This document shows, in pieces, positions 1-28,067 of a stretch of DNA of 46,557 bases (its first letter is position 1; each line of letters starts with the position of its first letter). Source of the DNA: Verrucomicrobiia bacterium (GTDB taxonomy: Bacteria; Verrucomicrobiota; Verrucomicrobiia; Limisphaerales; UBA11358); the NCBI GenBank assembly GCA_035279985.1, contig DATEGR010000067.1:1-46557 (forward strand), in the 5' to 3' direction. The notes under the pieces were generated by a model. That model was not told where the DNA came from, made no database searches, and saw nothing but the letters and a program-made list of their open reading frames with translations. The translations under genes were made by a program, and so were the position numbers.

Positions 1-258
1 ACCTTCAAGCCCGTTAAAATAACTACTATCTTTTGCACGATAACATGAGATTTCTGCACTGAATTCAGCCGGCCTTCTTTCTACCCGTGAATCATGGGCC
101 TGACGGGCACCCTGGCTTCCCCCTGTGTACCATAAAACCGCGGAGTTGATTCCGTTTATCTCCGCCGTCGAGCGAATAATCCTGAGGGAAACGTCGACAA
201 CTGATTTCCTGGAGGATTGCCGGAAGGCACCCCGAATGGTCCTTTTACCCGGGTCAGC

Positions 259-2835
259 TCATTGGGCGTGAATGGCCATGCTGGCTGATTTCAAGCCATC
301 TGCGACCGCCGTGAGTTTGATGGCTCCGGTCTGTCCGGCTTTGGAGCGAACGATGGTGAGGCAAAGGCCGTTGAAAGCCTTGCGCTCGCGGGAGGGAAAC
401 GAGACCAAATCCGTCGGGTCACCGTTATCGGTAGCCACAATTTCGCCCGGCCCGGAAATTTCGAAATGAATGGTGTTGTTCGCGCGCGGCGCTATCAAGC
501 CATGCTTGTCTTCGACCATCAAGGTGACGAAGGATAAATCCTCGCCGTCAGCGTGAATTTTTTTGCGATCCGGCTGCAAGGCGAGTTTCGCGGCCGGGCC
601 GGTGGTTTGCACCAGGTCGGTTGCCCACGGTCTGCCGTTTTTGTATGCAACCGCCTTGAGCTCGCCCGGTGCGTATTTCACGTCATTCCAACACAGGCGA
701 TATTGGTATTCTTCTTTTTTCTTCAGCCCGAGCGACTTGCCGTTCAGGAACAGTTCGGCTGCATCACCGGAAGTATAAACAAATACGAGGGTAACCTGGC
801 CGGCGCGGTCCGGCCAGTTCCAGCATTGGGGAACAAGGTGCGCCATGGGCAGGTCGGGTCGCCAGCGGGCCTGATACAGGTAAAAACGGTCTTTTTTGAG
901 ACCGGCCAGGTCAACAATCCCGAAATAAGAACTGCGCGAAGGATCGTTATGGGCATCGTAAGGTGTCGGTTCGCCGAGGTAATCGAAACCCGTCCATACG
1001 AACTCGCCGGCCACGAAGGGATTTTCGTCCTGGCCTTTGAATTCGGTGTCCGGGATCGTCGCCCAATATGGGGCGGAGAGGTCATAGGAACTCATTTGAA
1101 AGTCGGACTTGCCATCGTCCTTGTTCGTGCTGACGGGGTAGAAGTACTCACCGCGCGAGCTGATGCAGGAGGCGGTTTCACTGCCAAAGATCGGCAGACC
1201 GGGATTGGCGGCATGGACCTTGGTGTACAGGAAAGGTTTGTAGTTATAGCCGAAAACATCCAGGTTCGTCTGAAAACCGTCAAATCCCGACGCGATGTGA
1301 TCGCATGCGGCGGTGGTCGGGCGCGTCGGGTCTTCCTCGTGCGCAATCCGGGTCAGCTCCGCCGCAATCCGTGGCCCGGCCGGTGTTCCCTGGTCGGGCA
1401 CTTCATTACCAATGCTCCAGAGAATGATGCTGGGATGATTCCGGTCGCGACGCAGTTCCGCGCGCCAGTCCTTTTCATGCCAATCATTGAACAGCAGGTG
1501 ATAATCGTTAGGCCGCTTGCCGCGCTGCCAGCAATCGAATGACTCATCCATCACCAATATCCCCAGGCGGTCGCACAAATCGAGCAATTCCGGGGCCGGC
1601 GGATTATGGCTGGTCCGGATCGCATTGCAGCCCATCTCCTGCAGGATTTGGATTTGACGTTCCAGCGCCCGGTCATTGATGGCCGTGCCGAGCGCGCCCA
1701 GGTCGGCATGGTCGCAAACGCCGTTGAGACGGACATGTTCACCGTTCAGAAAGAAGCCCCGGTTGGGATCGAATTTGATGGTGCGGATGCCAAAAGGAGT
1801 CTCGTCGTGATCCAACAATTTGCCGTCCTGTTCAATGGAAGTGACCACCACATAGCGCTGGGGCTTCGCCAGGCTCCAAAGCAGCGGGTTTTTGACCGTT
1901 GCCTGCGCTTGGATCGTTTGGCGATTGTGCGGCGCAACTTCTATCGCGTCGGTGGCGGTTGAAGCAACGGACTCACCCCGGGTACCGTCGGCCTTGAGTT
2001 CGTAAATATCGTTTTTCACTGACACGGCCGCGACCGCATCAGCATCGTTCTCCACGGAAACCTGTATTCTCACCGTGGCAGTGGAAGAATTGATTTCTGG
2101 CGTGGTGACATAGGTGCCCCAATGTTCCACATGCACGGGTCCGGTCTTCACCAGCCAGACATTGCGGTAAATGCCGCCGCCGGGATACCAGCGCGAGGAA
2201 TCCGGCGGATTGTCCAGACGGATGGCGAGAACATTGTCCGCGCCGGCCTTGACAAATGGCGTCAGGTCAAGTTCCCAGGAAGAATATCCGTAGGGCCAAC
2301 CGCCGACGTATTGGCCATTAAGCCAGACATTCGCGTAAGACATGGCGCCATCCACGGCCAGATAAAGTCGACCACCGTTCCCGGAGGCAGGTAACGTGAA
2401 GTGCTTGCGATACCAGCCGATGCCTTCCCAGGGCAGCTTGCCGGTTGCGCCGGGCGCTGCCTGCTTGAATGGCCCTTCAATGCCCCAGTCGTGGGGAAGA
2501 TTCAGTTGGCGCCAGCCGTTATCATCATATCCGGTTTGGGTGTAGGCGACCTGTTCACCCGGGTTGCCCGGCGGGCGCGTCTCGGGTTGGCCGTCCAACA
2601 CAAACTCATTACCGGTGGCCATCACCCAGGGTTTGATGTTGGTATAACTGAGTTCGTCACCGGTTCCGGGCGGATCGCCCCTGGTAAAACGCCAGCCGGA
2701 GTCGAATAAAAGGCGTTCCCGAACGAGACCGGTTGCGGGAGCAGCAATGGTGAACATATTTAGAGTAAAGAGGCTAACGACAACCAGATGCCTCCAGCCA
2801 GGTTGAGAAAAACTGACGTGAGTTGTTCCTTTCAT
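259..2835 (-). CDS. Glycoside hydrolase family 2 (beta-galactosidase-like), secreted
   Basis: 858-aa ORF. GH2 TIM-barrel motifs NAIRTSHNPPAPELLDLCDRLGILVMDE and NHPSIILWSIGNE (acid/base Glu). Hydrophobic N-terminal signal-like segment LVVVSLFTLNMFTIAAP. Confidence 0.85.
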   Translation of the reverse strand: MKGTTHVSFSQPGWRHLVVVSLFTLNMFTIAAPATGLVRERLLFDSGWRFTRGDPPGTGDELSYTNIKPWVMATGNEFVLDGQPETRPPGNPGEQVAYTQTGYDDNGWRQLNLPHDWGIEGPFKQAAPGATGKLPWEGIGWYRKHFTLPASGNGGRLYLAVDGAMSYANVWLNGQYVGGWPYGYSSWELDLTPFVKAGADNVLAIRLDNPPDSSRWYPGGGIYRNVWLVKTGPVHVEHWGTYVTTPEINSSTATVRIQVSVENDADAVAAVSVKNDIYELKADGTRGESVASTATDAIEVAPHNRQTIQAQATVKNPLLWSLAKPQRYVVVTSIEQDGKLLDHDETPFGIRTIKFDPNRGFFLNGEHVRLNGVCDHADLGALGTAINDRALERQIQILQEMGCNAIRTSHNPPAPELLDLCDRLGILVMDESFDCWQRGKRPNDYHLLFNDWHEKDWRAELRRDRNHPSIILWSIGNEVPDQGTPAGPRIAAELTRIAHEEDPTRPTTAACDHIASGFDGFQTNLDVFGYNYKPFLYTKVHAANPGLPIFGSETASCISSRGEYFYPVSTNKDDGKSDFQMSSYDLSAPYWATIPDTEFKGQDENPFVAGEFVWTGFDYLGEPTPYDAHNDPSRSSYFGIVDLAGLKKDRFYLYQARWRPDLPMAHLVPQCWNWPDRAGQVTLVFVYTSGDAAELFLNGKSLGLKKKEEYQYRLCWNDVKYAPGELKAVAYKNGRPWATDLVQTTGPAAKLALQPDRKKIHADGEDLSFVTLMVEDKHGLIAPRANNTIHFEISGPGEIVATDNGDPTDLVSFPSRERKAFNGLCLTIVRSKAGQTGAIKLTAVADGLKSASMAIHAQ

Positions 2836-2938
2836 AAGTATCGTCTTTTCAAGTTGTTAATTCCGAAGGGAAGGATTCCGTTTCGACAACTTCATGGTGG
2901 CCATTGATTAAATGGCAACCTTTTGGAGGGGTTTTGCA

Positions 2939-2954
2939 TAGCCTCACAAATGTA
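2939..2954 (-). promoter_or_regulatory. Copy C of conserved upstream motif (minus-strand reading TACATTTGTGAGGCTA, followed by TGCAAAA)
   Basis: The plus strand reads TAGCCTCACAAATGTA. Its reverse complement matches the 16-nt core of the 29-nt repeats at 13246 and 14381. It lies in the divergent GH2/GH53 intergenic region, oriented toward the minus-strand GH2 gene about 100 nt downstream. Confidence 0.4.
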
Positions 2955-3126
2955 TGGTTTTGGCACTTTGGTTAATTTCCTGATGCAACAACTTGATTTG
3001 CGGGTGTAACATCGGTCCATGTGCACGGTTTTTTCCGGCCTGGCGGCGCCGAGGTTACGTTATCGGCGACTTCACACATTCACCAGCGCTGCCAAACAAT
3101 ACGACAACCCGGGAATATCAAGGAAG

Positions 3127-4377
3127 ATGAAAATTTCATCTGCAGTTTTGTCCTGGAACAGCATTCCATGGGGCATCTGGATGATCGCCGCAATTCTTAT
3201 GTTCCCGACCACCGGACCTGCGAGTGGCTCCGCTCCTCAAGCGGCGCCCAAGGTCAATCCTTCACCGTTTTATTTAGGCGCGGATATTTCCACCCTCTCG
3301 GAGGTTGATCGGCGCGGCGGAGTTTACATGGACGGCGACAAGCCCGGTGACGCGCTGGCCATTTTTATGAAAAATGGCTGGACGTGTTTTCGTTTGCGGA
3401 TTTGGGTTGATCCCCGCAATGGGGTCAATGGTCTTGAATACACGACAAAACTGGCCAAACGCATCAAGGACGCCGGTGGGACGTTCATGCTTGATTTCCA
3501 TTATTCTGACTGGTGGGCCGATCCACAGAAACAGAACAAGCCCGCCGCGTGGGCGAATCTGGATTTTGACGCGCTGGTCAGACAAACGCAGACCTACACC
3601 GCCCACGTGATCCGGACGTTGAAAGCAGCCGGCGCCACGCCGGATTTCGTACAGATCGGCAACGAAATCACTGGCGGTATGCTATGGCCGGATGGTCAAG
3701 TGAAGGTTCCGCTTTCCACGGTCAAGGTGTTTGGCGGTGACGTGACCGTAATCAAACCGCCGGAACCTTACGACGATGCCAGACAATGGGATCATCTGAT
3801 CCGTCTTTTGAAAGCCGATGCCGAAGGTGTCCGTTCAGCCACGACGCCTGAAGACCACGTCCGAATCGTTGTTCATATTGATTGCGGCGGTGACTGGCCT
3901 GTCACCAGATGGTATTTTGACCATCTTACGCAGGCCGGGGTTGACTATGATGTCATAGGCCAGAGTTATTACCCGAACTGGCATGGCACCCTGGAAAATG
4001 TCCGCGTCAACCTGCGCCATACGATTGAACGGTACCACAAGGACGTGATGATCGTCGAAACCGCATACCCGTCCCGGGATGTTCATCCCTCACCGGATGC
4101 GGCCAGAAATATGGTCTGGCCCATGACACCGGAGGGGCAGGAACGGTTCCTGGCTGATCTCATCCGGGTGGTCAAGCAAGCGCCCGAAGGGCGAGGCATC
4201 GGCGTAAACTACTGGCATCCCGAGGCCACTTTCATTCCGGGTTCCACCAATCGTTGGAGTGGACCGGATGCCAACGCGCTTTTCGATGCCAGGGGCAACC
4301 CGCTTCCCGCCATGAACGTATTAGGCCTGCAACCCGCGATGCGAACAGCGCATGCCGAAACGGTTGAACGACATTAA
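3127..4377 (+). CDS. Glycoside hydrolase family 53 (arabinogalactan endo-beta-1,4-galactanase)
   Basis: GH53 motifs FMLDFHYSDWWADPQKQNKPAAW, QIGNEITGGMLW (acid/base Glu) and MIVETAYP (nucleophile Glu). Start moved from the track's 3019 to the ATG at 3127, which follows AGGAAG and begins a signal peptide (MKISSAVLSWNSIPWGIWMIAAILMF). Confidence 0.85.
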   Translation: MKISSAVLSWNSIPWGIWMIAAILMFPTTGPASGSAPQAAPKVNPSPFYLGADISTLSEVDRRGGVYMDGDKPGDALAIFMKNGWTCFRLRIWVDPRNGVNGLEYTTKLAKRIKDAGGTFMLDFHYSDWWADPQKQNKPAAWANLDFDALVRQTQTYTAHVIRTLKAAGATPDFVQIGNEITGGMLWPDGQVKVPLSTVKVFGGDVTVIKPPEPYDDARQWDHLIRLLKADAEGVRSATTPEDHVRIVVHIDCGGDWPVTRWYFDHLTQAGVDYDVIGQSYYPNWHGTLENVRVNLRHTIERYHKDVMIVETAYPSRDVHPSPDAARNMVWPMTPEGQERFLADLIRVVKQAPEGRGIGVNYWHPEATFIPGSTNRWSGPDANALFDARGNPLPAMNVLGLQPAMRTAHAETVERH

Positions 4378-4494
4378 AAGCAAACAGACATTCTCCGACG
4401 ATGGATCGAACCGTTCCGGCGGAGAACTGGGACCTGAATTATGTGCGGAGTCTTAGGGCGTATTCTCTTCCACCGGCCGGCTCCGGCGTGGCAG

Positions 4495-6723
4495 ATGAAA
4501 ATTCAAACGACCGGATGGATTTTTCTTTTCGCACTACTAACTGCCTCACCGGTGCTTGCCCAGAACGGTGCGCCGCCAGCCGGTGGACAAACACCAGCCA
4601 TCGGGCCGGGCACAAATAACGTAAAGGCTGCGCTGCGTTGGCGGCCTGATTTATTCAGGCGGTTCTTCGGGCCGACCACGCCATTCGAGACACCGGGCAT
4701 CGGGCTTAAGCCGTTTGTCATAGATCATCGCCACGCCACCCACTCGGTCATTGATTTGTCTTTCCTGCTGGATGCGCCCGCGGGCAAGCACGGTTTTATC
4801 CGTGCGCGGGGTGACCAGCTGGTCAAAGGAGACAGCGGGCCGATTCGTTTCTGGGGATTCAACGTTACCGAGTGGAGCCATGGCTCAACCGAGGTTCCCG
4901 CCAAAGCAGATGCGCCCCTGTGGGCGGAGGCGCTGGCGCGCGCCGGCGTGAACATGGTGCGTCTGCAATTTCTTGATCTGGCGGCGCCGCGGGGATTGAT
5001 CGACGGCACCCGCAATGACAGTCAGCACTTCGATCCGGCGCAACTCGACAACGAAGATTTTTTCCTCGCCGAATTAATGAAGCGCGGCATCTACATTGAC
5101 TTCAATCTTAATGTCGGCCGGGCGTTCAAACCGGGAGACAACGTCCCCGCCTTACGGGAAGGGAAAGGCCCGCTGCTTTTCGACAGGCGCCTGATTGAAC
5201 TCGAAAAAGACTACGCCAGACAATTGTTGACCCACGTGAATCCGTATACCAAAAGGGCCTACGTTGATGACCCGGGCGTTGCCATCGTCGAAATCGTAAA
5301 CGAGGATGCCATTGGCGTCGGCTGGAAGGGAAACAAGGCCTATGATGATGAGCTGACCGATCTCTTCAACGGATGGTTGCTCAAAAACGTATCCACCGAA
5401 AAACTGGCCGAGTTCCGCAAAGCGGCCGGGGTCGGCCCCGATCAACCCATTCCCCGCCTCACCGGCCCGGCTGTGCCGAGCGCGGCCCCGGACCGGTATT
5501 ACGCTGAATGCAGGTTCTACTCTGAATTGGAGTCCGGCTTCTTCAAGGAAATGAGTTCCTATTTAAGGGCCGACTTGGGTGTGAAATGCGCGCTGATTGC
5601 CACCGCCGACCACAGTCATTCGGGCAGCGGCTACCCGCTGGAAGCCGACGCGCAACAACTGGATATCATGGACGGTCATGATTACTGGCGGCATCCGGGC
5701 GTCCCGCCTTTCCGGCATAATCCCATGGTAAATGAACCGTTCAATTCGACCGTGGTCGAACTTTCACGAACGGCCATCGCCGGCAAACCGTACACGGTCA
5801 GCGAGGTAAACAATCCGTGGCCCAATCAATTCGATTGCGAAGGAATTCCAATTCTGGCGGCTTATGGCGACTTTCAAGGCTGGAATGGCATCATGTGGTA
5901 TACGTTTGAGCCGAAACGAAATGCCGATTGGCAGCCCGTGCTTACCGACCCGTTCGACATGTCGCACGATCCCGTCAAGATGCCGGAAATGGCGGCCGGG
6001 GCACTGATGTTTCTCCGCGGCGACATCGAGCCGGCGCGAAAGACCGTCGCGCGTTCCTATACACCGCAAGAAGTCAGGGACAGCAGAAGGCTGGCGGGCA
6101 TGGACCGCCCTTACTTTACGCCGGGTTTTCCATTATCCTTGCCGTTGCTACACGCTTCGCGCATCCAATCGCTGGATGGACAGCCCACAGCCCGCATCAC
6201 GGCCGACCTTGCCAGTCCCTGCCGGAGCGACACCGGCCAATTGACCTGGTACACCAACCCGGTTGACAAGGGTCTGGTAACCATTGACAGTCCGTGCTCG
6301 CAGGCGCTGGTTGGTTTCGTCAAAGCCAACGGCAAAAGTGTCAGCAATCTTTCCGCGGATGTCTCAAACACTTTTTGCGCGATCATTCTCAGTTCCCTCG
6401 AGGCCAAACCCATCTCAACGTCAAGCCGGATGCTCCTGGTCACCGGCTCGCGGGTCGAAAATACCGGCATGACTTGGAATGCCGAGAAGTCTCTTCCGGC
6501 CAATTGGGGCGGGACGCCAACGGTGATTGAACCTGTGACCGGCACCATTACGCTGCGCGACCTCGCCCGGGCAAACGCGGTTTCGGCCAGAGCTTTGGAC
6601 GGTTCGGGCCGTCCCATTGGCGACCCGATTATCGCCCAAAAAACCGGCGTGGGTTGGGAGATCGCCGTCGGCCAGATCGTTACACCCTGGTATGAGTTGA
6701 CGGTCGAGCGCAGCCGGAGATGA
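4495..6723 (+). CDS. Secreted TIM-barrel glycoside hydrolase, clan GH-A-like, family not assignable by eye
   Basis: Signal peptide MKIQTTGWIFLFALLTASPVLAQ at the internal ATG 4495 (track start 4441). Clan-A style acid/base segment VAIVEIVNEDAIG and candidate nucleophile segment YTVSEVNNPW. Flanked by GH53 and GH2 genes. Confidence 0.55.
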   Translation: MKIQTTGWIFLFALLTASPVLAQNGAPPAGGQTPAIGPGTNNVKAALRWRPDLFRRFFGPTTPFETPGIGLKPFVIDHRHATHSVIDLSFLLDAPAGKHGFIRARGDQLVKGDSGPIRFWGFNVTEWSHGSTEVPAKADAPLWAEALARAGVNMVRLQFLDLAAPRGLIDGTRNDSQHFDPAQLDNEDFFLAELMKRGIYIDFNLNVGRAFKPGDNVPALREGKGPLLFDRRLIELEKDYARQLLTHVNPYTKRAYVDDPGVAIVEIVNEDAIGVGWKGNKAYDDELTDLFNGWLLKNVSTEKLAEFRKAAGVGPDQPIPRLTGPAVPSAAPDRYYAECRFYSELESGFFKEMSSYLRADLGVKCALIATADHSHSGSGYPLEADAQQLDIMDGHDYWRHPGVPPFRHNPMVNEPFNSTVVELSRTAIAGKPYTVSEVNNPWPNQFDCEGIPILAAYGDFQGWNGIMWYTFEPKRNADWQPVLTDPFDMSHDPVKMPEMAAGALMFLRGDIEPARKTVARSYTPQEVRDSRRLAGMDRPYFTPGFPLSLPLLHASRIQSLDGQPTARITADLASPCRSDTGQLTWYTNPVDKGLVTIDSPCSQALVGFVKANGKSVSNLSADVSNTFCAIILSSLEAKPISTSSRMLLVTGSRVENTGMTWNAEKSLPANWGGTPTVIEPVTGTITLRDLARANAVSARALDGSGRPIGDPIIAQKTGVGWEIAVGQIVTPWYELTVERSRR

Positions 6724-6798
6724 GAACTAAGTCCTATGACACGCTCATGCGAAGCTGATGCAATGGCGTCAGACCCAACCGATTGCCGGAAACTCCCG

Positions 6799-9342
6799 AT
6801 GACTCGGGCAATTTCTTTCCTCACGATCGTTGTCGGTGTTCTGGCCGTACTGTCTGGCAACCCTCCGCTACGAGCCGCCGAGCAGCCCCGCCAGCGGCTC
6901 AGCGCGGACTTTAATTGGAAGTTCATCAAGGGCGACCAACCTGGTGCCGACAAATCTGATTTTGATGACTCGGCCTGGCGCATCGTAAACCTGCCGCACG
7001 ATTGGAGCATTGAAGGGCCTTACACACAATCCGACCCGACTGGCGGTAGCGGCGGCTACCTGCCAACTGGAATCGGTTGGTATCGCCGCACCTTTACCGC
7101 GCCGGAAACCTGGCACGGAAAGAAGGTGTTCGTGGAATTCGACGGGGTCTATATGAACAGCGATGTCTGGATCAACGGCCAGCACCTCGGACATCGGCCG
7201 TCCGGTTACCTCGGTTTTGAATATGACCTCACGCCGTATTTGAATTTTGGCGCAACCAACGTTCTCGCGGTGCGCGTGGACAACTCCCGCCAGCCCAACA
7301 GCCGCTGGTATTCCGGGTCCGGCATCTATCGGCATGTGTGGGTCACGATCTGCGAACCGCTCCATGTCGCGCATTGGGGCACTTATGTGACCACCTCGAT
7401 CGTTTCAACCAACTTGGCAACGGTGCGTATCCGCACGCAGGTTCAAAACGATTTGCCGAAGCGGCGTGAAATCACGTTGGTCAGTCAGGTTGTCACTGCC
7501 GAAGGAACCGTCGTGGCAACGGCTGAATCGAAGAAAAGGATCGCTGCGGGAACGACCCGCACTTTTGACCAGAGCGTCGAGGTGCCCCAACCGGGTCTAT
7601 GGTCGCTCGACTCGCCAAACCTTTACTGCGTTCGCACGCTGGTGAAGACCGCGAACAACGTCATGGATGATTACGAAACCGCCTTTGGCATTCGCGGGAT
7701 TTACTACGATGTCAACCAGGGTTTTCTCCTGAACGGCCAGCGCGTCAAAATGCAGGGCATGTGTCTGCATCAGGATGGCGGTTCGGTTGGAGCAGCGGTG
7801 CCCGTTGGAGTCTGGGAGCGGCGTTTGAAAGAGTTGAAAGACATTGGCTGCAACGCCATTCGCATGAGTCACAATCCCCCTGCGCCGGAAGTGCTTGATC
7901 TGTGCGACCGCATGGGTTTTCTCGTCATGGACGAAGCGTTTGACGAATGGACAATATCGAAGGCACAAGTGCGCCACGGCTATGCAGACTATTTCAAGGA
8001 ATGGTCCCAACGTGATCTGATTGATATGCTGCAGCGCGACCGCAACCATCCCGGCATCGTTATTTGGGGCGTCGGCAACGAAATTCCCGAACAGACCGTC
8101 ACCAACGGCGCTGACATTCTCCGTCCGCTCGTCGAGACTTGCCATCAGGAAGACCCGACGCGTCCCGTTACCGCGGCTTGCGACAACGTTTACACGGATA
8201 CCAAGAGTGCGACACCGGCGTTCCTGAATCTTCTGGACATCGTGGGCTACAATTACGTGGACCGCTGGGGAACCCGGCGAGAGACCTTTTATGACGATGA
8301 CCGACATGCCTTTCCGCAACGAAAGTTCATCGGAACGGAAAGCGTGGTGGTGGGCGCGCGCGGCGATTACTCGCTCACCAATGGTGGCTTTGGCTTTTGG
8401 GGCGATTTCGGAAGTTCTGGTGGTGCTCCCGCCGGAGTCACGATAAGAAGGCCGCCGGCTTATACCATGTCCATGATCCGCGCCGAGCAGCTTTGGAAGT
8501 TTGTTAAAGTCCATGATTACGTCATTGGTGATTTCGGATGGACGGGGATTGATTATCTGGGTGAATCGCGTTGGCCTGGCAAGTTGTCGCCCAGCGGCAT
8601 GCTCGACACCTGCGGGTTTCCCAAGGACAACTACTATTTTTATCAAAGCCAGTGGACGACCAATTTGATGCTGCACCTGTTTCCGCATTGGAATTGGAAA
8701 GGACATGAAGGCCAGGTTATTCCGGTGATTTGCTACACCAGTTGCGACACGGTGGAACTTTTTCTGAACGGAAAAAGTTTTGGCGTCAAGTCGTTGGAAT
8801 TCCCGCGTCAAGGCAATGCCGGGGGTTGGGCCACTTATGCCCGACCGCAACAGCCCACCGGTACCACCGCCGACTTGCATCTGACGTGGGATGTTCCCTA
8901 CGAGTCTGGAACCCTCAAAGCGGTCGGGTACAAATACGGCCAAAAAGTCTGCGAGGAGGAGGTCCATACCACCGGTGATCCGGCCGCCATCGTGATGACC
9001 GCGGACTGTACCAACTTGAATGCCAATGGACGTGATGTCGCCCAGCTGACGGTCAGAATTGTTGATGACCAGGGTTACACCGTGCCGGGAGCCACCAACC
9101 GGGTGTCGTTTGATCTGCAAGGTGCAGCTTCAATGATCGGCGTGGACAACGGCAATCCCATCAGCCATGAAGATTACAAGGCAAAACAAAGACTTGCCTT
9201 CCATGGCCGTTGCCTCGCCATCGTGCAAGCCGGCCGCGAAGCCGGATCGGTTCGCCTCGGCGCCTCGGCGGCGGGGCTCCAGGGAACCACTGTTGAATTG
9301 GAGGTTGGAGTCTCGACAAACTCAGTCCCGGTCCTACCATGA
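6799..9342 (+). CDS. Glycoside hydrolase family 2 (beta-galactosidase-like), secreted
   Basis: Motifs NAIRMSHNPPAPEVLDLCDRMGFLVMDE and NHPGIVIWGVGNE. Paralog of the 259..2835 protein. ATG at 6799 begins the signal peptide MTRAISFLTIVVGVLAVLSG; the track start 6736 remains possible. Confidence 0.85.
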   Translation: MTRAISFLTIVVGVLAVLSGNPPLRAAEQPRQRLSADFNWKFIKGDQPGADKSDFDDSAWRIVNLPHDWSIEGPYTQSDPTGGSGGYLPTGIGWYRRTFTAPETWHGKKVFVEFDGVYMNSDVWINGQHLGHRPSGYLGFEYDLTPYLNFGATNVLAVRVDNSRQPNSRWYSGSGIYRHVWVTICEPLHVAHWGTYVTTSIVSTNLATVRIRTQVQNDLPKRREITLVSQVVTAEGTVVATAESKKRIAAGTTRTFDQSVEVPQPGLWSLDSPNLYCVRTLVKTANNVMDDYETAFGIRGIYYDVNQGFLLNGQRVKMQGMCLHQDGGSVGAAVPVGVWERRLKELKDIGCNAIRMSHNPPAPEVLDLCDRMGFLVMDEAFDEWTISKAQVRHGYADYFKEWSQRDLIDMLQRDRNHPGIVIWGVGNEIPEQTVTNGADILRPLVETCHQEDPTRPVTAACDNVYTDTKSATPAFLNLLDIVGYNYVDRWGTRRETFYDDDRHAFPQRKFIGTESVVVGARGDYSLTNGGFGFWGDFGSSGGAPAGVTIRRPPAYTMSMIRAEQLWKFVKVHDYVIGDFGWTGIDYLGESRWPGKLSPSGMLDTCGFPKDNYYFYQSQWTTNLMLHLFPHWNWKGHEGQVIPVICYTSCDTVELFLNGKSFGVKSLEFPRQGNAGGWATYARPQQPTGTTADLHLTWDVPYESGTLKAVGYKYGQKVCEEEVHTTGDPAAIVMTADCTNLNANGRDVAQLTVRIVDDQGYTVPGATNRVSFDLQGAASMIGVDNGNPISHEDYKAKQRLAFHGRCLAIVQAGREAGSVRLGASAAGLQGTTVELEVGVSTNSVPVLP

Positions 9343-12300
9343 TTGAATTCTTGAAGCCTTTCTCCACATCTGCCCGCAGAGTGTTTGGGACGTCACGTTG
9401 GAGCGTCACGATCGGCTGCGGTTTGGTTTTTGGTGCGGGACTGGCTCTGCCCGCCAACGTTTGGGCGGATCAGGTTCCGGCAAAGCCAGACTCGCCCGAA
9501 GTGACAAACCTGGTGCAACTTTCCCGGCTCGGCTCCCAGAACCCGAATATCAGCCATCTTATCCGTTTGGAAGGAGATGTTTTGTGGGCGGACCCGGCGC
9601 AGGGAAAATTTGTTTTACAGGATGCGTCCGGGACAGACGAGTTGGAAATGGAGTTGCGCGGCCAATCCCTCCAGCCGGGCCAGCGGGTGCGATTGGAGGG
9701 CGAGAGCACCATTACCCGGCGCGACGCGGGTGTTCAACTCGGCGTCATGGGCCCGGTGGTGGACGACGACGGCATCCATACGATGATCGAAAAATCCGGC
9801 GCGGTCTATCTTCAGGCGGGTCGCCATCCCCTTCGCGTTGATTGGTTTAATGGCGTTGAGAGATATGGATTGGAAGTAGACTATCAAGGGCCCGCTTTGC
9901 TCCGTCAAAGAATTCCTGATGCAGCGCTCTTTCGTGTTCAAATGGATGCCACTGGCGCAACGAATTTTGCAAACGGATTGAATTATGCCTGTTACGAAGC
10001 TGACGGCGAAGTCTTGCCTGACTTCGCGGAGCTGGTACCTCTCAAAACCGGGATCGTTTCCAACTTTGATCTGGGTGTCATGAGCCGCAACGAGCACGTC
10101 GGGTTGCAGTTTACAGGCTATCTTCAAATTCCGCGTGACGGTCTCTATACCTTTTACCTTACCTCGGATGATGGCAGTCAATTATTCATCAGCGAACGGC
10201 CGCTCCGGCTGGAAACGATTGGACAGATTGAATTGCCGACACCGCACCGGATGATAATCGGGCAGACCTTAAGCGAGAGCGGGGGTTATCAATGGGTTGA
10301 GGTTGAAGGAAAGGTCACCTTTGTCGGTGAACGGAAAGACGGATGGGATTTGGAATTAACCTCGGAAACCGGCCGCCTGAAACTCAAGGTGGCGGATGGC
10401 TCAGGATTGTCGGCGGACCAGCTTTTGAACAGCCGGGTCCGGGTTACCGGGGTTTGTCAGAGTGTTTACGATGCCGAGGGAGAAAAAGTTGGCGGTATCC
10501 TGTTGGTTTCAGACAAACGCGAGATCAAAATCATCGGGGCAGCCAATCCAGCGACAAATAACCAGGACACCGGCCTGGGAACACTGCCGGTGTTGACCAC
10601 CGCCAGTGAAGTTCATCAATTGAACCGGGAGGAGGCACAACGGGGCTATTCTGTGAAAATCCAGGGTGTGGTTACCTGTGTCCTGCCCGAACGCCAGGCC
10701 TTCACCATTCAAGATGCGACCCGGGGGTTGTATGTGGTTGATTCTTCCGAGAGCCGGTCGGTGCCGCCGAAGATCGGTGAGTATCTGGAGGTCGCAGGCA
10801 AGACCGATCCGAGCCTGTTTGCTCCCATTGTTGACGCAGACCATGTCGGGAATCTCGGCGCGGGGCGTTTGCCGCAGCCGGTCCACCCGGCCTGGGAGCA
10901 GTTGATGAACGGAAGCCTGGATGCCCAGTATGTCGAGTTGCAGGGCATCGTCACTTCGGTCAGTTCCAATAGCGTTACGCTGTTTACGGGCGATGGCCAA
11001 CTCAAATTGGAGTTAAGGGTGATCGGGATTAAAACGGCGGATTTGGAACGCTACGAAGATGCCGTGGTCCGCGTGCGGGGTTGTTTGCTGGCATCGTGGG
11101 ATTATGTGACGCATCAGGTAAAAGTGGGCGAAATCCGGGTTTATGGCGCGGAAATTTCGGTGGATCAGCCGGCCCCGACGGATTTGTTTTCGCTTCCGCT
11201 GAAGACCGTTGCCGAACTGTTGCAGTTCAACCCGCAAGCCGGCGTATTCCAACGGGTGAAAATTTCCGGACAGATTATTTATGCGCAAGCGCCCGAGTAT
11301 TATCTGATGGATGGCAAATATGGCGTGCAATTTATTTTGAAGAAACCGGTTCCGGGGCTGGAAGCTGGTGATCGGGTGGAAGTGGTCGGCTTCCCGGGTT
11401 TGAGCGGGGCTTCGCCGCTCCTGCATGAAGCTGTGGCGCGCAAAACCGGCCACGCCACCCTGCCAAAGGCCCGCAAGCTGCAACCGGACAACTTGATCCA
11501 TGCGGAGTATGACTCGACGCTCGTCACCGTGGACGGATTGCTCGTGAGTGTGAGGGAAACGCCGGCCGGCCAGGCTTTGGAAATGCGGAGCGGCGTCCGC
11601 ACTTTTATGGCCCGGCTCAATACCAGGAATGATTCCGTGCATTCGCTGGCGCCAGGCACCCGTTTGAAGCTGGTCGGGGTTTATCTGGGTGAAGGCGGGA
11701 ACCGGGCAGTGGGGCAGGATATTACCTCCTTCGAATTGCTGCTCAATTCACCGGGGGATATCAAAGTATTGGCCCGGCCACCGTGGTGGACGCTGGAACG
11801 ATTACTGGTCATGATGGGTGTGCTGGTGTGCGTGCTGGCGGCGGCCGCGTTATGGATCACTCAATTGCATCGGCAGGTGGAACAACGCACCCGGGAACTC
11901 GAAGCTCAAATCCGGCAACGCCAGAATGTCGAGCACCAGCGGGCCATGGAGCAGGAGCGCGCCCGGATTGCCCAGGACTTGCACGACGAACTCGGCTCCG
12001 GCATTACGGAAATCAGCATGTTGGCCGCCCGGTCGAGATCGACGACCGCTCCCGACGAAAAACGGAACCATTACCTGGAACAAGCGCGCGAAAAAGCCCG
12101 CGAAATGGTCACCGCGCTGGATGAAATTGTCTGGGCGATGAATCCGAAACACGATTCCCTTGCGTCGCTGGTCAGTTATTTTTGTCTTTACGCGGATCGT
12201 TTTCTGGGTCTGGCCAACATCGCCTGGCGCCTGGAAGGCATGCCTGGGACGCCTGATCCCACGGTGGATTCACGGCACCGGCATCAGTTGTTTCTGGCGT

Positions 12301-12557
12301 TCAAGGAAGCATTGACCAACGTGGTGCGTCACGCCGACGCGTCGGAAGTCCGCTTGCGCATCCAGGCCGAACAGGGTCAGGTGCGGTTGATCGTTGCCGA
12401 CAACGGGCGCGGATTCTCCCCGGGAATTCACACCGAGGAAATGGACGGCGTGGCCAACATGCGGGCGCGCATCGAAAAATTGGGTGGAAGATTTGAAATC
12501 GCCAGCGAAGCCGGTCACGGCACGACGGTACGGTTTTACATGCCTTTAAGTTCATGA
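9339..12557 (+). CDS. Sensor histidine kinase (HisKA_3 + HATPase_c) with a large periplasmic region of about 800 aa containing a PA14-like segment and six OB-like repeats
   Basis: N-terminal signal/TM segment and a second TM (LLVMMGVLVCVLAAAALWI). Coiled coil followed by the His box IAQDLHDELGSG. ATPase motifs LTNVVRHADAS, VADNGRGF and GHGTTVRFYMP. PA14-like GLQFTGYLQIPRDGLYTFYLTSDDGSQLFI. Its ATG overlaps the GH2 stop (ATGA at 9339-9342). Confidence 0.85.
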   Translation: MIEFLKPFSTSARRVFGTSRWSVTIGCGLVFGAGLALPANVWADQVPAKPDSPEVTNLVQLSRLGSQNPNISHLIRLEGDVLWADPAQGKFVLQDASGTDELEMELRGQSLQPGQRVRLEGESTITRRDAGVQLGVMGPVVDDDGIHTMIEKSGAVYLQAGRHPLRVDWFNGVERYGLEVDYQGPALLRQRIPDAALFRVQMDATGATNFANGLNYACYEADGEVLPDFAELVPLKTGIVSNFDLGVMSRNEHVGLQFTGYLQIPRDGLYTFYLTSDDGSQLFISERPLRLETIGQIELPTPHRMIIGQTLSESGGYQWVEVEGKVTFVGERKDGWDLELTSETGRLKLKVADGSGLSADQLLNSRVRVTGVCQSVYDAEGEKVGGILLVSDKREIKIIGAANPATNNQDTGLGTLPVLTTASEVHQLNREEAQRGYSVKIQGVVTCVLPERQAFTIQDATRGLYVVDSSESRSVPPKIGEYLEVAGKTDPSLFAPIVDADHVGNLGAGRLPQPVHPAWEQLMNGSLDAQYVELQGIVTSVSSNSVTLFTGDGQLKLELRVIGIKTADLERYEDAVVRVRGCLLASWDYVTHQVKVGEIRVYGAEISVDQPAPTDLFSLPLKTVAELLQFNPQAGVFQRVKISGQIIYAQAPEYYLMDGKYGVQFILKKPVPGLEAGDRVEVVGFPGLSGASPLLHEAVARKTGHATLPKARKLQPDNLIHAEYDSTLVTVDGLLVSVRETPAGQALEMRSGVRTFMARLNTRNDSVHSLAPGTRLKLVGVYLGEGGNRAVGQDITSFELLLNSPGDIKVLARPPWWTLERLLVMMGVLVCVLAAAALWITQLHRQVEQRTRELEAQIRQRQNVEHQRAMEQERARIAQDLHDELGSGITEISMLAARSRSTTAPDEKRNHYLEQAREKAREMVTALDEIVWAMNPKHDSLASLVSYFCLYADRFLGLANIAWRLEGMPGTPDPTVDSRHRHQLFLAFKEALTNVVRHADASEVRLRIQAEQGQVRLIVADNGRGFSPGIHTEEMDGVANMRARIEKLGGRFEIASEAGHGTTVRFYMPLSS

Positions 12558-13201
12558 CCAAGATTGCCATTGTTGAAGATAACAAAGTAATTCGTGAGAG
12601 TCTCATGGAATTCATCCACGCGGACCCGGAATGCCGCTGTGTCTGCGCCTGTGCGACGGCGGAAGAGGCGTTGAAGGTGATTCCCAAACACGAGCCTGAA
12701 ATCGTGCTGATGGACATTCAGCTGCCCAACATGTCGGGAATTGATTGTCTCGCTCAATTGAAACAGCTGCTGCCCTCGGTCCATATTATCATGGTGACGG
12801 TCTATGAAGACACCGAGCGGATCTTCAAAGCATTGCGCCTGGGGGCATGCGGTTACCTGTTAAAACGTTGTGCGCCCGAAGAACTCATCGCCGCCATCCG
12901 TGAAGTCCGGCAGGGGGGTGCTCCGATGTCGCGCGAGATCGCGCGCAAGGTGATCGCTTCGTTTCAAGAACCGCTGGCAACCGCCATGGAAGTGGAAGAC
13001 CTTACGGCTCGCGAGCGGGAGATTTTGGAATTGCTGGCCAACGGGTTCCCTAACAAACAAATCGCCGACCGCCTGGGGTTGACCGATGGCACGGTGCGTT
13101 GGCATCTCCGGCACGTGTATAATAAACTACATGTCCGCTCCCGCACCGAAGCCGCCCTCAAGTTCCGCTCAACCAAACAGGAAAAACAGGATAGTCGTTA
13201 A
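12554..13201 (+). CDS. Response regulator, NarL/FixJ family (REC domain + LuxR-type HTH)
   Basis: Receiver acidic pocket (IVEDN ... VLMDIQLP). C-terminal HTH LTAREREILELLANGFPNKQIADRLGLTDGTVRWHLRHVYNKLHVRSRTEA. ATGA overlap with the kinase stop at 12554-12557. Confidence 0.9.
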   Translation: MTKIAIVEDNKVIRESLMEFIHADPECRCVCACATAEEALKVIPKHEPEIVLMDIQLPNMSGIDCLAQLKQLLPSVHIIMVTVYEDTERIFKALRLGACGYLLKRCAPEELIAAIREVRQGGAPMSREIARKVIASFQEPLATAMEVEDLTAREREILELLANGFPNKQIADRLGLTDGTVRWHLRHVYNKLHVRSRTEAALKFRSTKQEKQDSR

Positions 13202-13245
13202 TTCACAATAATTTACACCGTTTTCCAACTCTGGGGACTGGTTGG

Positions 13246-13274
13246 AATACTCTACATTTGTGAGGCTAGGCAAA
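13246..13274 (+). promoter_or_regulatory. Copy A of conserved upstream motif AATACTCTACATTTGTGAGGCTAGGCAAA
   Basis: 29 nt identical to 14381..14409. Lies 56 nt upstream of the PEP-CTERM gene start and directly downstream of the response-regulator gene. Contains TACATTTG, which fits the TAnnTTTG pattern. Confidence 0.45.
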
Positions 13275-13329
13275 CTCAGGGATTCCGGGCATAATTAATG
13301 GAATTAGCGAACCCGTAAAACAATCATCT

Positions 13330-14094
13330 ATGAAAACTGTTTCTTTGGTTACTACTGTTATTGCTGCGTTCACACTGGCCGTTTTGCCGGCAAAAGCTCA
13401 GGTCACTTATGTGGGTCCCGGTACCGCCAATGGCGGCGGCGGAAATGGGGAGGGGATCAGCAGCGTTGTCATCAACAACACTGCCAGCAGCATCACCTTT
13501 ACCATCAATACGAGCGCGGCGCAGAGCGCATACGTTCAATATTATGTCCTGCTGCAGGATGTTGGCCAGGGTGCCAGTGGAAGCAGTGCGCTCTTTAACT
13601 CTGCGGGAGCCCTCAACGGGTGGGGTCCCAGTCTGGGCATCAGCACTGGTGAAAACGCCTTTGCTGCCACTTATAATACGGGCGCCAATTCAGCGTACTA
13701 TAGCGGTGGTGTTTGGACGATGGGTTCGGGAGCCGCCTATGATTCCGGCGGCACTGGATTTAATTTCGTCACCTTCACAAGGCCGTTAAGCAGCCTCGGA
13801 TTGAGCGTCGGTGGCAGTTTCTACTTCGACGTTGTGTCCTCCTATCCTAATGGTATCGGTCAATCCGCCTATGGTTCATTGCTCAGCAGTTATCCTGCGG
13901 AGACAGATAATGCCTACACCCCTTACAATGGCACCTCCGCTTATGACGCTGCGACAGATGCAGGGGGAGCAGCCTCGAAGTTCGGCACGGCGGCGTATAT
14001 GTACACCGTGGTACCCGAACCGGTTGCCAGCGCATTCCTTGGTTTGGGCGCGCTGCTTTTGATTGTGCGCCGAAGGGTATTCCCTGCCCGTTAG
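13330..14094 (+). CDS. PEP-CTERM sorting-domain secreted protein, function unknown
   Basis: Signal peptide MKTVSLVTTVIAAFTLAVLPAKAQ. Gly/Ser/Ala-rich body. C-terminal VPEP + hydrophobic helix + RRR (TVVPEPVASAFLGLGALLLIVRRR). Confidence 0.8.
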   Translation: MKTVSLVTTVIAAFTLAVLPAKAQVTYVGPGTANGGGGNGEGISSVVINNTASSITFTINTSAAQSAYVQYYVLLQDVGQGASGSSALFNSAGALNGWGPSLGISTGENAFAATYNTGANSAYYSGGVWTMGSGAAYDSGGTGFNFVTFTRPLSSLGLSVGGSFYFDVVSSYPNGIGQSAYGSLLSSYPAETDNAYTPYNGTSAYDAATDAGGAASKFGTAAYMYTVVPEPVASAFLGLGALLLIVRRRVFPAR

Positions 14095-14126
14095 TTTTGA
14101 TTTTGCGGATCGTGAACATCACAAAG

Positions 14127-14158
14127 TGCCGCTTGTGCCAACAGGCGGCATTTTCGTT
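14127..14158 (+). terminator. Rho-independent terminator candidate downstream of the PEP-CTERM gene
   Basis: Stem TGCCGCTT / AGGCGGCA (8 bp including one G-U pair), 8-nt loop GTGCCAAC, then TTTTCGTT. Lies 33 nt after the stop codon. Confidence 0.55.
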
Positions 14159-14380
14159 CCGGTCGTTAAGTTCATCGGTTCTCCCTGCCGAAATTCACCG
14201 CACCGACCGGCTCAACCAAAGATCGTAAGACCGTAGTTCCATCATGCTTAAAACAAACATGCCACCGTTATAGGTCCAAACTGCGCTCAAATCCATTCCC
14301 GCAAGACAAAAAGGGCATCGAAAACAGCCCTTGATTCAAAAGCGGTTATGCCGCTTGTCAGTTCAGGCTACGTCGGCCCT

Positions 14381-14409
14381 AATACTCTACATTTGTGAGG
14401 CTAGGCAAA
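14381..14409 (+). promoter_or_regulatory. Copy B of conserved upstream motif AATACTCTACATTTGTGAGGCTAGGCAAA
   Basis: Identical 29-mer to 13246..13274, about 175 nt upstream of the prepilin-like gene ATG at 14585. Confidence 0.45.
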
Positions 14410-14584
14410 GCGGGAAAAAGCAACTACGTTTGCCCTGATTAATCATGCAGCAGGTGAAACAATGCGCACGTTGTCATCTCGACGGTGAAACAAATAATGC
14501 TAAACTGTCCTGTTCATTGTTTATGTGAAATCACGTAAAGAGCCGTATATCGAATACGCAATACGGATAATTCATTCACAACCG

Positions 14585-15481
14585 ATGCCGATACCCAATT
14601 TGAAACCATCAAAGTCAAATAACAACTCACCGTTGCCATCGGGCTTCACGCTGATTGAATTGCTGGTGGTGATTGCCATCATCGCGATTTTGGCGGCGTT
14701 ATTGCTGCCGGCCCTGTCCGCCGCGAAGATCAGGGCGCAGCGGATTGTATGCGTATCAAATCTGAGGCAATGGGGGGTGGCCTTTCCGATGTATGCCGGC
14801 GACCACCATGACAGTCTGCCGTTGGGTTGGTATGATCCGAATGGGATGTGGATGTTTGCGTTGCAGCCATACATGCCTGGATCCGTTAGCGGGACCGGCA
14901 TGGGCGGAAAGCTATGCTACTGTCCAGCGGCAACAAAGATGCGCAGTTCACTTGCGAATTTTTGGGTTACTTCCGGCACCACCTTTCTGGCCTGGGGCAT
15001 CATGGGCACGAACGGCTATCCGGTTGCGACTCCGTGGGGCCGTGCCGGCATGGCCGGCAGTTATGGATTTAACGGCTGGCTGGCCAATCCCCCGGATGCG
15101 GAATTGGCTGCTGCTGGTGCCGCTGCGGTAGCGGATTCGCCAGGATATTGGCGGACAATGACAGGAGCCGGCAGGTACGCGTCGCGGACACCCTTATTTG
15201 CTGATTGTGTGTGGCAGGGAAGCAACCCGCACGCTGGCGGCAGCTACAATACCACACTCGATGCAGCGCCTGCGAACGAAGGTGATTGTGGGGCTTTCGA
15301 TGAGTTGCCGTCTTTTTGCATTCCCAGACACGCCAGCAGAAAGCCTGTGGACATGACGTTCGTGGATGGTTCGGTCAGGTTCGTGGGCTTGAAGGAGCTT
15401 TGGCAAATGCCTTGGAGCAAGATTTACGATCCGACCCAAGCCCTGAGCAGGTTTCGCGCCTGGATGAACAGTTACGATTAG
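14585..15481 (+). CDS. Prepilin-type N-terminal cleavage/methylation domain protein, DUF1559-like with H-X(n)-DG tail
   Basis: G|[28 protein letters not shown] prepilin motif. DUF1559-like [22 protein letters not shown]-terminal [19 protein letters not shown] (H-X11-DG variant). ATG 14585 preferred over the track's GTG at 14525. Confidence 0.8.
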
Positions 15482-15572
15482 TCAAAACCATGGCTCCCGG
15501 ATTTCCCAATGCCTGTGACTTTGCTGCTATCAGCCTGCACAAAAAAGATAAGCCAAACAAACCCATAAAACC

Positions 15573-18299: not shown

Positions 18300-18323
18300 A
18301 CAACTGGAACGCAAGTTTGGGAC

Positions 18324-18372
18324 GAAGCTGGAGTTGTTCACACAAAACTGGAATGACTCCAGCTTCAGTTTT
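18324..18372 (+). terminator. Hairpin terminator candidate after the 908-aa gene
   Basis: Perfect 11-bp stem GAAGCTGGAGT / ACTCCAGCTTC with a 21-nt loop, followed by AGTTTT. The long loop lowers confidence. Confidence 0.4.
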
Positions 18373-18409
18373 AGGTTGTAACGGCTGGATCGAGCTAAGC
18401 ATTATTGGA

Positions 18410-19738
18410 ATGAAATTTGCCTGTTTCACTTTAGCGATAGCGGCGCTTTTTGCGCCGGGCGTATCACTCGCGCAGAACAGCTTTATCGCCGGGGCGGACT
18501 TTTCCGATCTGAAATTTTTCGAAGCTCGGGGTATTGCCTACAAGGATGGCGGACAGGTTCAGGACGGGATTCAGATTCTCAAAAATCACGGTATTAATTG
18601 TATCAGGCTGCGGCTCTGGACCAGCAGCCCGGCTCAGGCCAGCGCGGACCCATACAACTACGGCAATAATACCAACTACACCGTGCCACTGGCGGTGCGG
18701 GTCAAAAACGCCGGCTTGCAGTTCATGCTGGATTTTCATTATTCCGACACCTGGGCCGATCCGGGTCATCAAACCACCCCGGCGGCCTGGGCCGGCCTGA
18801 CTTTCGTCCAACTGGTGTCGCAGATGCGCACTTACAACAGCAACACCATCGTCGCTTTCGCGGCCGCGGGGGCAATGCCGGACTACGTCCAGATTGGCAA
18901 TGAAATCACCCACGGCATGTTGTGGACCAATGGACAGCTTACGGGCCCGTGGAGCAGTTCCAACCCATCGTGGATCCGGCTCGGCCAATTGATGAATGCG
19001 GCCATCCAGGGAATCGAGGATGCGACGAATGCTACGGGCGCTAAAATGCCTAAAATCATCGTTCATATTGACAGAGGCGGCGACTGGGGCACGACCCAGG
19101 CGTATTTTGAAAACCTGAATGCTCAAGGAGTGCCTTACGATATCATCGGCGAGAGTTATTACCCCTTCTACCATGGATCACCCACAAATCTGAATATTTG
19201 TCTCAGCAATGCAGCGGTTGAATTCGGCAAACCCATCATCGTCGCTGAGGACGCTTTTCCCTACACCAATACTTGTCCGTCCGCCTGGCTTGGCCAGCTT
19301 TTTGGCTATCCGCCTACGCCGGCTGGTCAGGTCAGTTTCATCGCCGCGCTGGCCAGGATTGTGGAAAGTGTGCCCAACCACCTCGGGGCGGGCTTCGTCT
19401 ATTGGGGAGCAGAGTATCAAGCGGCCAGCGGTGTCAATGAAGCCGGTTTCAATACGGCGTCGTTTTTTGATGCCGGTGGCAATGTTCTGCCGGTGGCCAG
19501 CGCCGTTGGCGGAATGGCCGCCCCACTTTTGATCAGCCCCTCGCTGAATGGTTCGAATCTACAGTTACAGTGGCCATTCAGTGGAGCTGCTTTGACCTTG
19601 ACGACCACAACCACCTTGGCGCCTTCAACCGTCTGGTCGTCGGTGCCCAATACGCCCCAAACCACGGGAGCAGTGTTTACCGTCACCCTGCCGGTGGATT
19701 CCAGCCAAACCCGTTTTTACCGCTTGCAACCGAACTGA
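18410..19738 (+). CDS. Glycoside hydrolase family 53 endo-beta-1,4-galactanase with the shared C-terminal FYR-type domain
   Basis: Signal peptide MKFACFTLAIAALFAPGVSLAQ at ATG 18410 (the track ORF starts at 18206, inside the upstream gene). Motifs FMLDFHYSDTWADPGHQTTPAAW and QIGNEITHGMLW. Tail is LQLQWPFSG...TVWSSVPN...TRFYRLQPN. Confidence 0.85.
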   Translation: MKFACFTLAIAALFAPGVSLAQNSFIAGADFSDLKFFEARGIAYKDGGQVQDGIQILKNHGINCIRLRLWTSSPAQASADPYNYGNNTNYTVPLAVRVKNAGLQFMLDFHYSDTWADPGHQTTPAAWAGLTFVQLVSQMRTYNSNTIVAFAAAGAMPDYVQIGNEITHGMLWTNGQLTGPWSSSNPSWIRLGQLMNAAIQGIEDATNATGAKMPKIIVHIDRGGDWGTTQAYFENLNAQGVPYDIIGESYYPFYHGSPTNLNICLSNAAVEFGKPIIVAEDAFPYTNTCPSAWLGQLFGYPPTPAGQVSFIAALARIVESVPNHLGAGFVYWGAEYQAASGVNEAGFNTASFFDAGGNVLPVASAVGGMAAPLLISPSLNGSNLQLQWPFSGAALTLTTTTTLAPSTVWSSVPNTPQTTGAVFTVTLPVDSSQTRFYRLQPN

Positions 19739-19855
19739 CCGGAGGCAACCGGCAGAGAGATGGATTCCGTGGCAAAAATTTGAATTTAGACGGAATCCAA
19801 CCGATCTCCGATTATTTTGCAAATTGTTGCTGCTCAGTTAGGCTGATGGCAGCCT

Positions 19856-27915: not shown

Positions 27916-28067
27916 TTACACATTATTAGTTGGTCGGCGGACTTTGTTTACTTTAACTTCCGACATTCAAGAAAAAACCCATCCTCCCCAAATTATTTTA
28001 GAGGTTGCATTTTCTGATTTGGAGCTTTCCTGCAAGAAAGCTATCTTCGTTGACGAGTATTCAATAT

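Follow-up and report, generated by a model that had tools for sequence, protein, structure and literature searches.

Introduction

NarL of Escherichia coli binds 7-2-7 palindromes, with base contacts made from helix alpha-9 by Lys188, Val189 and Lys192, and its 7-2-7 sites at yeaR and ogt are positioned at -43.5 and -44.5, respectively, just upstream of the -35 hexamer (PMC10853779). A similar arrangement is described here for a 46,557-nt stretch of DNA from a Verrucomicrobiia bacterium (Limisphaerales), hereafter the window, which is contig C67 (DATEGR010000067.1) of a 4.09-Mb draft genome (GCA_035279985.1; 560 contigs, 83% complete). Three copies of a 29-bp box lie in a locus that encodes GH2 and GH53 enzymes, PEP-CTERM and prepilin-type proteins and a two-component system, and it is considered quite probable that the box is the operator of this adjacent two-component system, set within three activator-dependent promoters of the sigma-70 type. 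The case for an operator draws on the exclusivity of the box to this locus, its conservation, its co-occurrence with the regulator in a motif-blind survey, its footprint, its palindromic structure, its covariation with the recognition helix of the regulator, the promoter geometry and the NarL precedent.

Like E. coli NarX/NarL, the window system combines a HisKA_3 kinase with a regulator made up of a receiver and a GerE/LuxR-type helix-turn-helix (HTH) domain, and the specificity differences observed among its relatives fall at the helix residue equivalent to NarL Lys192. The likeness would extend to the promoter, as the 16-bp 7-2-7 inverted repeats occupied by NarL at yeaR and ogt also adjoin the upstream side of the -35 hexamer (PMC10853779). 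In contrast, the half-site is TGTGAGG here and TACYYMT for NarL, sensing is assigned to an extracytoplasmic domain of ~770 residues that contains PA14, the regulon covers one glycan locus and is not a global respiratory regulon like that of NarL, and an additional, invariant CTAGGCAAA follows the repeat.

Two further groups of regulators invite comparison. Hybrid two-component systems (HTCS) of Bacteroides control polysaccharide utilisation loci (PULs), such as the galactan PUL of B. thetaiotaomicron. By analogy, the window system would be a glycan sensor private to its locus, with a large periplasmic domain, that switches on the adjacent GH2, GH53 and surface-protein genes; however, it is a two-protein system with a NarL-type output, whereas HTCS are fused proteins with an AraC-type output. 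No SusC/SusD genes, for which no dedicated search was made, were seen among the annotated genes, and the co-regulated surface genes encode PEP-CTERM and prepilin-type proteins in the phylum Verrucomicrobiota. Regulators of the LuxR/TraR type bind ligands, lack a receiver domain and recognise lux or tra boxes of 18-20 bp, features that set them apart from the system described here. Their boxes are nevertheless alike in being palindromes for a dimer of GerE/LuxR-type HTH domains, centred in the low -40s and partly replacing the -35 hexamer.

Verrucomicrobiota of soil and peat are abundant degraders of plant polymers, and to our knowledge almost nothing is known about the regulation of their carbohydrate-active enzyme loci. 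The mechanism of a NarL-type 7-2-7 site abutting a -35 hexamer is textbook, and the box is most likely such an operator, belonging to a glycan-sensing two-component system of an uncultured member of the Limisphaerales; neither the box nor the regulon turned up in literature searches. An operator defined by its sequence would delimit a galactan regulon without cultivation, and would tie a PEP-CTERM protein and a pilin-like/giant-protein pair of unknown function to one substrate, making their roles testable.

A 29-bp box is confined to one locus

In a pattern search of the whole window, the 16-mer TACATTTGTGAGGCTA was found exactly at 13253-13268 and 14388-14403 on the plus strand and at 2939-2954 on the minus strand. 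On average, shuffled versions of the window contain 0.02 matches with no more than two mismatches, and none of 100 shuffles reaches three. The plus-strand copies extend to an identical 29-mer, AATACTCTACATTTGTGAGGCTAGGCAAA, at 13246-13274 and 14381-14409, and the minus-strand copy of the same length reads AAAACCATACATTTGTGAGGCTATGCAAA (2933-2961). The initial annotation of this DNA, made from its letters alone, had reported the identical 29-mers and the reverse copy, and had placed all of them between genes and in the orientation of the gene downstream; the matches proved exact, and open reading frame (ORF) and Pfam annotation confirmed the placement and orientation of all three.

The genome-wide search that the initial annotation had proposed recovered only these three co-oriented intergenic copies, with no fourth copy of the 16-mer at up to two mismatches in the 4.09-Mb, 83% complete draft genome. 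A 29-nt weight matrix was built from the sites of other species, leaving out those of the window, and used to scan the genome. The three window boxes score 46.9-49.8 bits, and only four sites exceed a cut-off of 12 bits in 8.2 Mb of double-stranded sequence. The fourth is a weak site of 17.7 bits on contig C484, beside a paralogous two-component system, and the reversed matrix, used as a control, peaks at 13.6 bits. The scan thus yielded no regulon members elsewhere in the genome beyond the site of the C484 paralogue. The motif is a real, well-delimited cis-regulatory box.

Architecture of the box

In an alignment of 54 instances, position 1 was set at the T of TACATTTG. The 29-bp box comprises a 7-2-7 inverted repeat of 16 bp (positions -2 to 13) and a constant CTAGGCAAA, followed by a -10-like nAnnnT hexamer 16-17 bp past TAGGCA. 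Columns that had played no part in site picking, namely -6 to 0 (AAWACYM) and 17 to 22 (GGCAAA), hold 0.8-1.8 bits, whereas most of the surrounding intergenic columns hold 0-0.4 bits, the exceptions being the downstream columns in the -10 register and position 50, which is A in 39 of the 54 sites. The information outside the picking pattern indicates that the footprint is wider than the 16-mer.

The inverted repeat, which the initial annotation had missed, consists of two 7-bp elements separated by a 2-bp gap, and the window copies share the consensus CC/CT-nTACA-TT-TGTGAGG. Across 90 distinct boxes, a mean of 5.26 of the seven possible pairs are complementary in register, compared to 1.8-2.7 with the frame displaced by 1-3 nt, and the half-site consensus is TGT(G/A/C)(A/T)GG. 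Nine of the 90 are perfect palindromes, and sister clades carry the perfect forms CCTGACA-TT-TGTCAGG and CCACACC-TT-GGTGTGG.

The nearly invariant CTAGGCAAA directly follows the repeat and contains the -35-like hexamer TAGGCA, which matches TTGACA at four of six positions. It occurs four times in the genome, where CTAGGCA occurs 24 times and the reversed control word 319 times, and this rarity rules out a generic -35 flavour of the genome. Words containing CTAG are strongly under-represented genome-wide, and the invariant CTAGG within the box stands out for that reason.

Of 125 unique sites, 97 have an nAnnnT hexamer starting at position 37 or 38, compared to 1-17 sites at other offsets. In the window, the hexamers in this register are CATAAT, TACGTT and TGCCAT, which start 21-22 nt past the 16-mer. 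If transcription starts ~7 nt past the predicted hexamer, the repeat would span about -52 to -37, with its centre near -44.5. This geometry does not fit the initial proposal that the core matches the TAnnTTTG -7 pattern of Bacteroidota promoters. The host is a metagenome-assembled genome (MAG) of the Verrucomicrobiota/Limisphaerales, sister clades, with GACATTTG, CACAATTG or CACCTTGG, do not retain the TA, and TTTG is the inner part of the palindrome; moreover, ~37 nt separate the first T from the -10-like box downstream, which would place TACATTTG near -49 to -42 and not at -7. An ATTAAT/ATCAAT-like box, said to follow each copy after 19-30 nt, is literally present (at 19, 28 and 24 nt), but its spacing varies and it is not conserved across species. 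It was therefore rejected as the -10 element in favour of the hexamer at fixed offset, with which the ATTAAT of the second box merely overlaps.

The position of the box bears on whether the regulator activates or represses. As a repressor, this regulator or its unphosphorylated form could block RNA polymerase at the -35 region until galactan is present; NarL-family proteins can repress, and a box overlapping a -35-like hexamer is also compatible with occlusion. However, the palindrome sits just upstream of the -35 hexamer and not over the -35/-10 region or the start, the hexamers (TAGGCA, TACGTT and TGCCAT) are weak, as is typical of activator-dependent promoters, and the geometry matches that of the NarL-activated yeaR and ogt promoters. 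A repressor operator is thus unlikely, and activation from the box is favoured.

Conservation and linkage to the two-component system

Near-identical loci are present in Verrucomicrobiia, Verrucomicrobiota and Limisphaerales MAGs from peat, palsa and soil, a few other records bearing labels that evidently stem from mistaken binning. Of 100 genomes sampled from the same group, 25 contain the 16-mer at up to one mismatch, with one to four copies each in a cluster of 5-10 kb; as in the window, a single copy usually lies on the strand opposite to the others. The reversed pattern gave a single match in total across the genomes sampled. In 20 box-bearing regions onto which the window proteins were mapped, the boxes flank an orthologous kinase/regulator pair wherever the contig is long enough (kinase identity 49-98%). 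Every mapped copy lies between genes and is co-oriented with a gene for a GH2, GH53, PEP-CTERM, pilin-like, CBM20 or beta-helix protein. Those absent from the window set include a multi-CBM20 protein, small right-handed beta-helix proteins and a 767-aa GH53 protein, all of them exported and glycan-related. Box positions are orthologous across species while the flanks have diverged, with boxes upstream of the first GH2 gene in at least 12 other species.

A motif-blind test was performed on 80 loci picked solely by similarity to the regulator (71-98% identity). At least one box scoring above 15 bits lies within 3 kb downstream of the regulator in 56 of these loci, which together hold ~90 boxes, all but one on the regulator strand. 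In more distant species (L041, L042 and L134-L136), the GH53-kinase-regulator operon has a co-oriented box of its own, implying positive autoregulation. The shared cis-regulatory element that had been proposed at the outset is supported, as is a small, local regulon linking the hydrolase genes to those for the PEP-CTERM and pilin-like proteins.

Boxes also precede genes for small secreted right-handed beta-helix proteins at 7215 and 8853 of L046 (G025:C71) and at 6873 of L050 (G056:C145). Neither contig carries the two-component system, and both genomes encode a regulator of 80-85% identity elsewhere. In Limisphaera isolate genomes, whose regulators are ~80% and kinases 43-47% identical to those of the window, no box was found within 3 kb of the regulator, and these isolates are therefore no obvious model for this exact system.

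Covariation of the half-site with the recognition helix

The window regulator aligns over its full length with the NarL structure 1a04 (E = 3.3e-36) but scores 162.5 bits against the NCBIfam model for NarL (NF007935), below the equivalog cut-off of 250, and is thus a member of the family and not a NarL orthologue. Its recognition helix is GTVRWHLRHVYNKL, in which the segment TVRWHLRH places R, W and R at the positions equivalent to Lys188, Val189 and Lys192 in the 1a04 alignment.

A sister clade of syntenic galactan loci, with kinases of 63-65% and a regulator of 71% identity, has, at the corresponding positions, the perfect palindrome CCTGACA-TT-TGTCAGG followed by CTAGGCAAA. Its helix reads TVRWHLEN, with the Lys192-equivalent Arg replaced by Glu and the next residue, His, by Asn, whereas the rest of the helix is conserved; the changed residues (R-H to E-N) align with NarL Lys192 and His193. 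A second instance lies within the window genome itself, where the paralogous pair on C484 (L132; 484-3210) consists of a regulator of 71% identity and a kinase of 55% identity that matches only from residue 408 onward. The box of this locus, CCTGACA-TT-CGTCAGG-CTAGGCAGG at 6696-6724, lies 78 nt upstream of a gene for a 1961-aa exported repeat protein, and the regulator helix is RWHLENIY. The helix RWHLRHVY is therefore paired with the half-site TGTGAGG and RWHLENIY with boxes of the CCTGACA-TT-TGTCAGG type. The base at half-site position 4 (G/A or C) tracks the recognition helix, a suggestive pattern that offers a simple hypothesis of specificity: an R-H helix goes with G and an E-N helix with C at this position. 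A crude search beside the other 12 NarL-type paralogues of the genome, for a palindrome followed by CT[AGT][GT]nCA, gave nothing convincing.

Co-occurrence and helix tracking make the adjacent NarL-type regulator, which the initial annotation had named as a possible binder, the best candidate on comparative grounds. A different transcription factor encoded elsewhere might instead bind the box, with the linkage reflecting only shared membership of a galactan locus. The G025 and G056 boxes on contigs lacking the two-component system would fit such a factor, as would G021, which has no regulator closer than 69% identity. Yet G025 and G056 do encode the 80-85% identical orthologues elsewhere, 56 of the 80 regulator-picked loci have boxes immediately downstream, the operator variant follows the recognition helix, and regulators of this family characteristically use a 7-2-7 repeat. 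A separate factor is accordingly a little less likely even than a repressor.

The box could also be read as an alternative promoter of the extracytoplasmic function (ECF) sigma type, with AAC at positions -4 to -2 as the -35 element and GCAAA as the -10 element. The upstream AAnAC and downstream GCAAA loosely resemble ECF promoters of the GGAAC-N16-TCAAA type, and an ECF sigma gene is present elsewhere in the window (~28005-28709). However, conservation and palindromic symmetry peak in the supposed spacer, where no conservation would be expected, a sigma-70-like -10 element lies at a fixed downstream offset, and the gene pair linked to the boxes across species is that of the kinase and regulator and not a sigma gene, making an ECF promoter very improbable. 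Finally, although two copies are identical over 29 nt, a dispersed repeat, a mobile-element end or a transcribed RNA motif with no promoter role can be dismissed with near certainty, given that only three copies exist in the genome, all of them local and in orthologous positions with diverged flanks, that positions 1-20000 have no Rfam match at E of 1 or below, and that the ORF and Pfam annotation shows neither flanking repeats nor transposase genes.

Proposed mechanism

If the box is the operator of the adjacent system, the extracytoplasmic PA14-containing domain of the kinase would detect galactan or its oligosaccharides, the presumed inducer, and the kinase would phosphorylate the NarL-family regulator. 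A dimer of the regulator would then bind the 16-bp 7-2-7 repeat (half-site TGT[G/A][A/T]GG) abutting the weak -35-like TAGGCA and, with the centre of the repeat near -44.5, would recruit RNA polymerase in the manner of NarL at yeaR and ogt. The result would be joint induction of the GH2 gene, the PEP-CTERM gene and the train of pilin-like, 908-aa protein and GH53 genes, possibly along with the divergent operon that runs from GH53 to the kinase and regulator, which would constitute autoregulation.

Several observations weigh against this mechanism or against parts of it. The left half-site of the window boxes is imperfect, with 4-5 of seven pairs, and the constant CTAGGCAAA lies outside the palindrome, such that a dimer on the palindrome does not explain it. 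Boxes of the GH2 class have TGCCAT in the -10 register, with no A at the second position of the hexamer, and all start positions depend on a predicted -10 element. The genomes compared are related and hence not independent samples, and the covariation of helix and half-site probably represents one evolutionary event, so that it is not a statistical test. G021, which is 92% complete, has two good boxes and a best regulator of only 69% identity.

It is possible, if doubtful, that the arrangement is general and that each paralogous pair of a glycan-sensing kinase and a NarL-type regulator in Limisphaerales and other members of the Planctomycetota-Verrucomicrobiota-Chlamydiota (PVC) bacteria has a private 7-2-7 half-site, set by the two recognition-helix residues equivalent to Lys192 and His193 and fused to a shared, unusual CTAGGCAAA promoter module. 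Were such an operator code true, sequence could reveal the regulons, and through them the glycan substrates, of the large PEP-CTERM and H-X9-DG pilin-like families of unknown function.

Individual promoters

Box 1 (2933-2961, minus strand; 29 bp) lies upstream of the GH2 gene and is the highest-scoring of the three (49.8 bits). Its inverted repeat, CCATACA-TT-TGTGAGG, runs from 2957 to 2942, followed by the -35-like TATGCA (2940-2935) and the in-register -10 candidate TGCCAT (2917-2912), all on the minus strand. Transcription is predicted to start at ~2905, which would give a leader of ~70 nt to the ATG at 2835. On the other flank of the palindrome, the plus strand has a conserved TTGGCA (2960-2965), and the 40 nt beyond it are also conserved across species. 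Judging from this flank, box 1 may be used bidirectionally, as a single shared operator that also serves a divergent promoter of the GH53-kinase-regulator operon. A separate sigma-70-like TTCACA-18-AACAAT lies at 3071-3100. A sigma-54 reading of TGGCAC at 2961-2966 was rejected on inspection, as the GC of the -12 element is missing (TTAA) and variable in relatives, and also because NarL-type regulators do not drive sigma-54.

Box 2 (13246-13274, plus strand; 29 bp) lies upstream of the PEP-CTERM gene and has the inverted repeat CTCTACA-TT-TGTGAGG at 13250-13265. The -35-like TAGGCA (13267-13272) is separated by a 17-nt spacer from the -10 hexamer CATAAT (13290-13295), and this pair (13267-13295) was listed independently by a generic sigma-70 scan. 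The predicted start is ~13302, with a putative leader of ~28 nt.

Box 3 (14381-14409, plus strand; 29 bp) lies upstream of the train of pilin-like, 908-aa protein and GH53 genes, with the same inverted repeat, CTCTACA-TT-TGTGAGG, at 14385-14400, TAGGCA at 14402-14407 and the -10-like TACGTT at 14425-14430. The start predicted from these elements is ~14437, and the leader would extend ~150 nt to an ATG at 14585. A 27-aa small ORF with a CxxC motif at 14445, 3' of the box, was considered as a leader peptide and rejected, as its protein sequence is not retained in relatives. Conservation across species extends to a CGGATAATTCAT block (14564-14575) ~10-20 nt ahead of the ATG at 14585; this block may be the -10 element (GATAAT) of a second promoter or a translation signal. 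Between boxes 2 and 3, after the PEP-CTERM gene, a terminator-like hairpin with a T-run is present at 14135-14151 on the plus strand, consistent with separate transcripts from the two boxes.

Genes of the locus

The target of box 1 is a beta-galactosidase-type GH2 gene, assigned by Pfam, at 259-2835 on the minus strand. Divergent from this box, a GH53 gene, a gene for a 760-aa protein of unknown function and a second GH2 gene (3019-9342, plus strand) lead into the kinase and regulator genes; the GH53 gene of this group starts at 3019 or, more likely, at 3128 and ends at 4377. The target of box 2 (13330-14094, plus strand) encodes a 254-aa secreted protein with a VPEP motif, a transmembrane segment and a basic tail, as in PEP-CTERM proteins. 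Downstream of box 3, the train (14525-19738, plus strand) encodes a prepilin-type (N_methyl) protein, a 908-aa Ig-containing protein and a second GH53 protein, an order that is retained after the box in relatives. The pilin-like gene starts at 14525 or 14585 and ends at 15481.

The response regulator gene (12554-13201, plus strand) encodes a NarL/FixJ-family protein with a receiver (PF00072, 2.7e-27) and a GerE/LuxR-type HTH domain (PF00196, 1.8e-19), and its start overlaps the stop of the kinase gene, such that a cognate HisKA_3-type kinase gene is directly adjacent. The sensor histidine kinase (9339-12557, plus strand; 1072 aa) contains PA14, HisKA_3 (PF07730) and HATPase_c (PF02518) domains. 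According to hydropathy and Pfam, a signal or transmembrane segment at ~22-42 is followed by the extracytoplasmic domain with PA14, a second transmembrane segment at ~818-840 and then HisKA_3 and HATPase_c, which is the topology of a sensor of an external ligand. Many paralogous kinases of the group match the window kinase only from residue ~280-415 onward, which suggests a modular sensor with an exchangeable N-terminal portion of ~300-400 residues.

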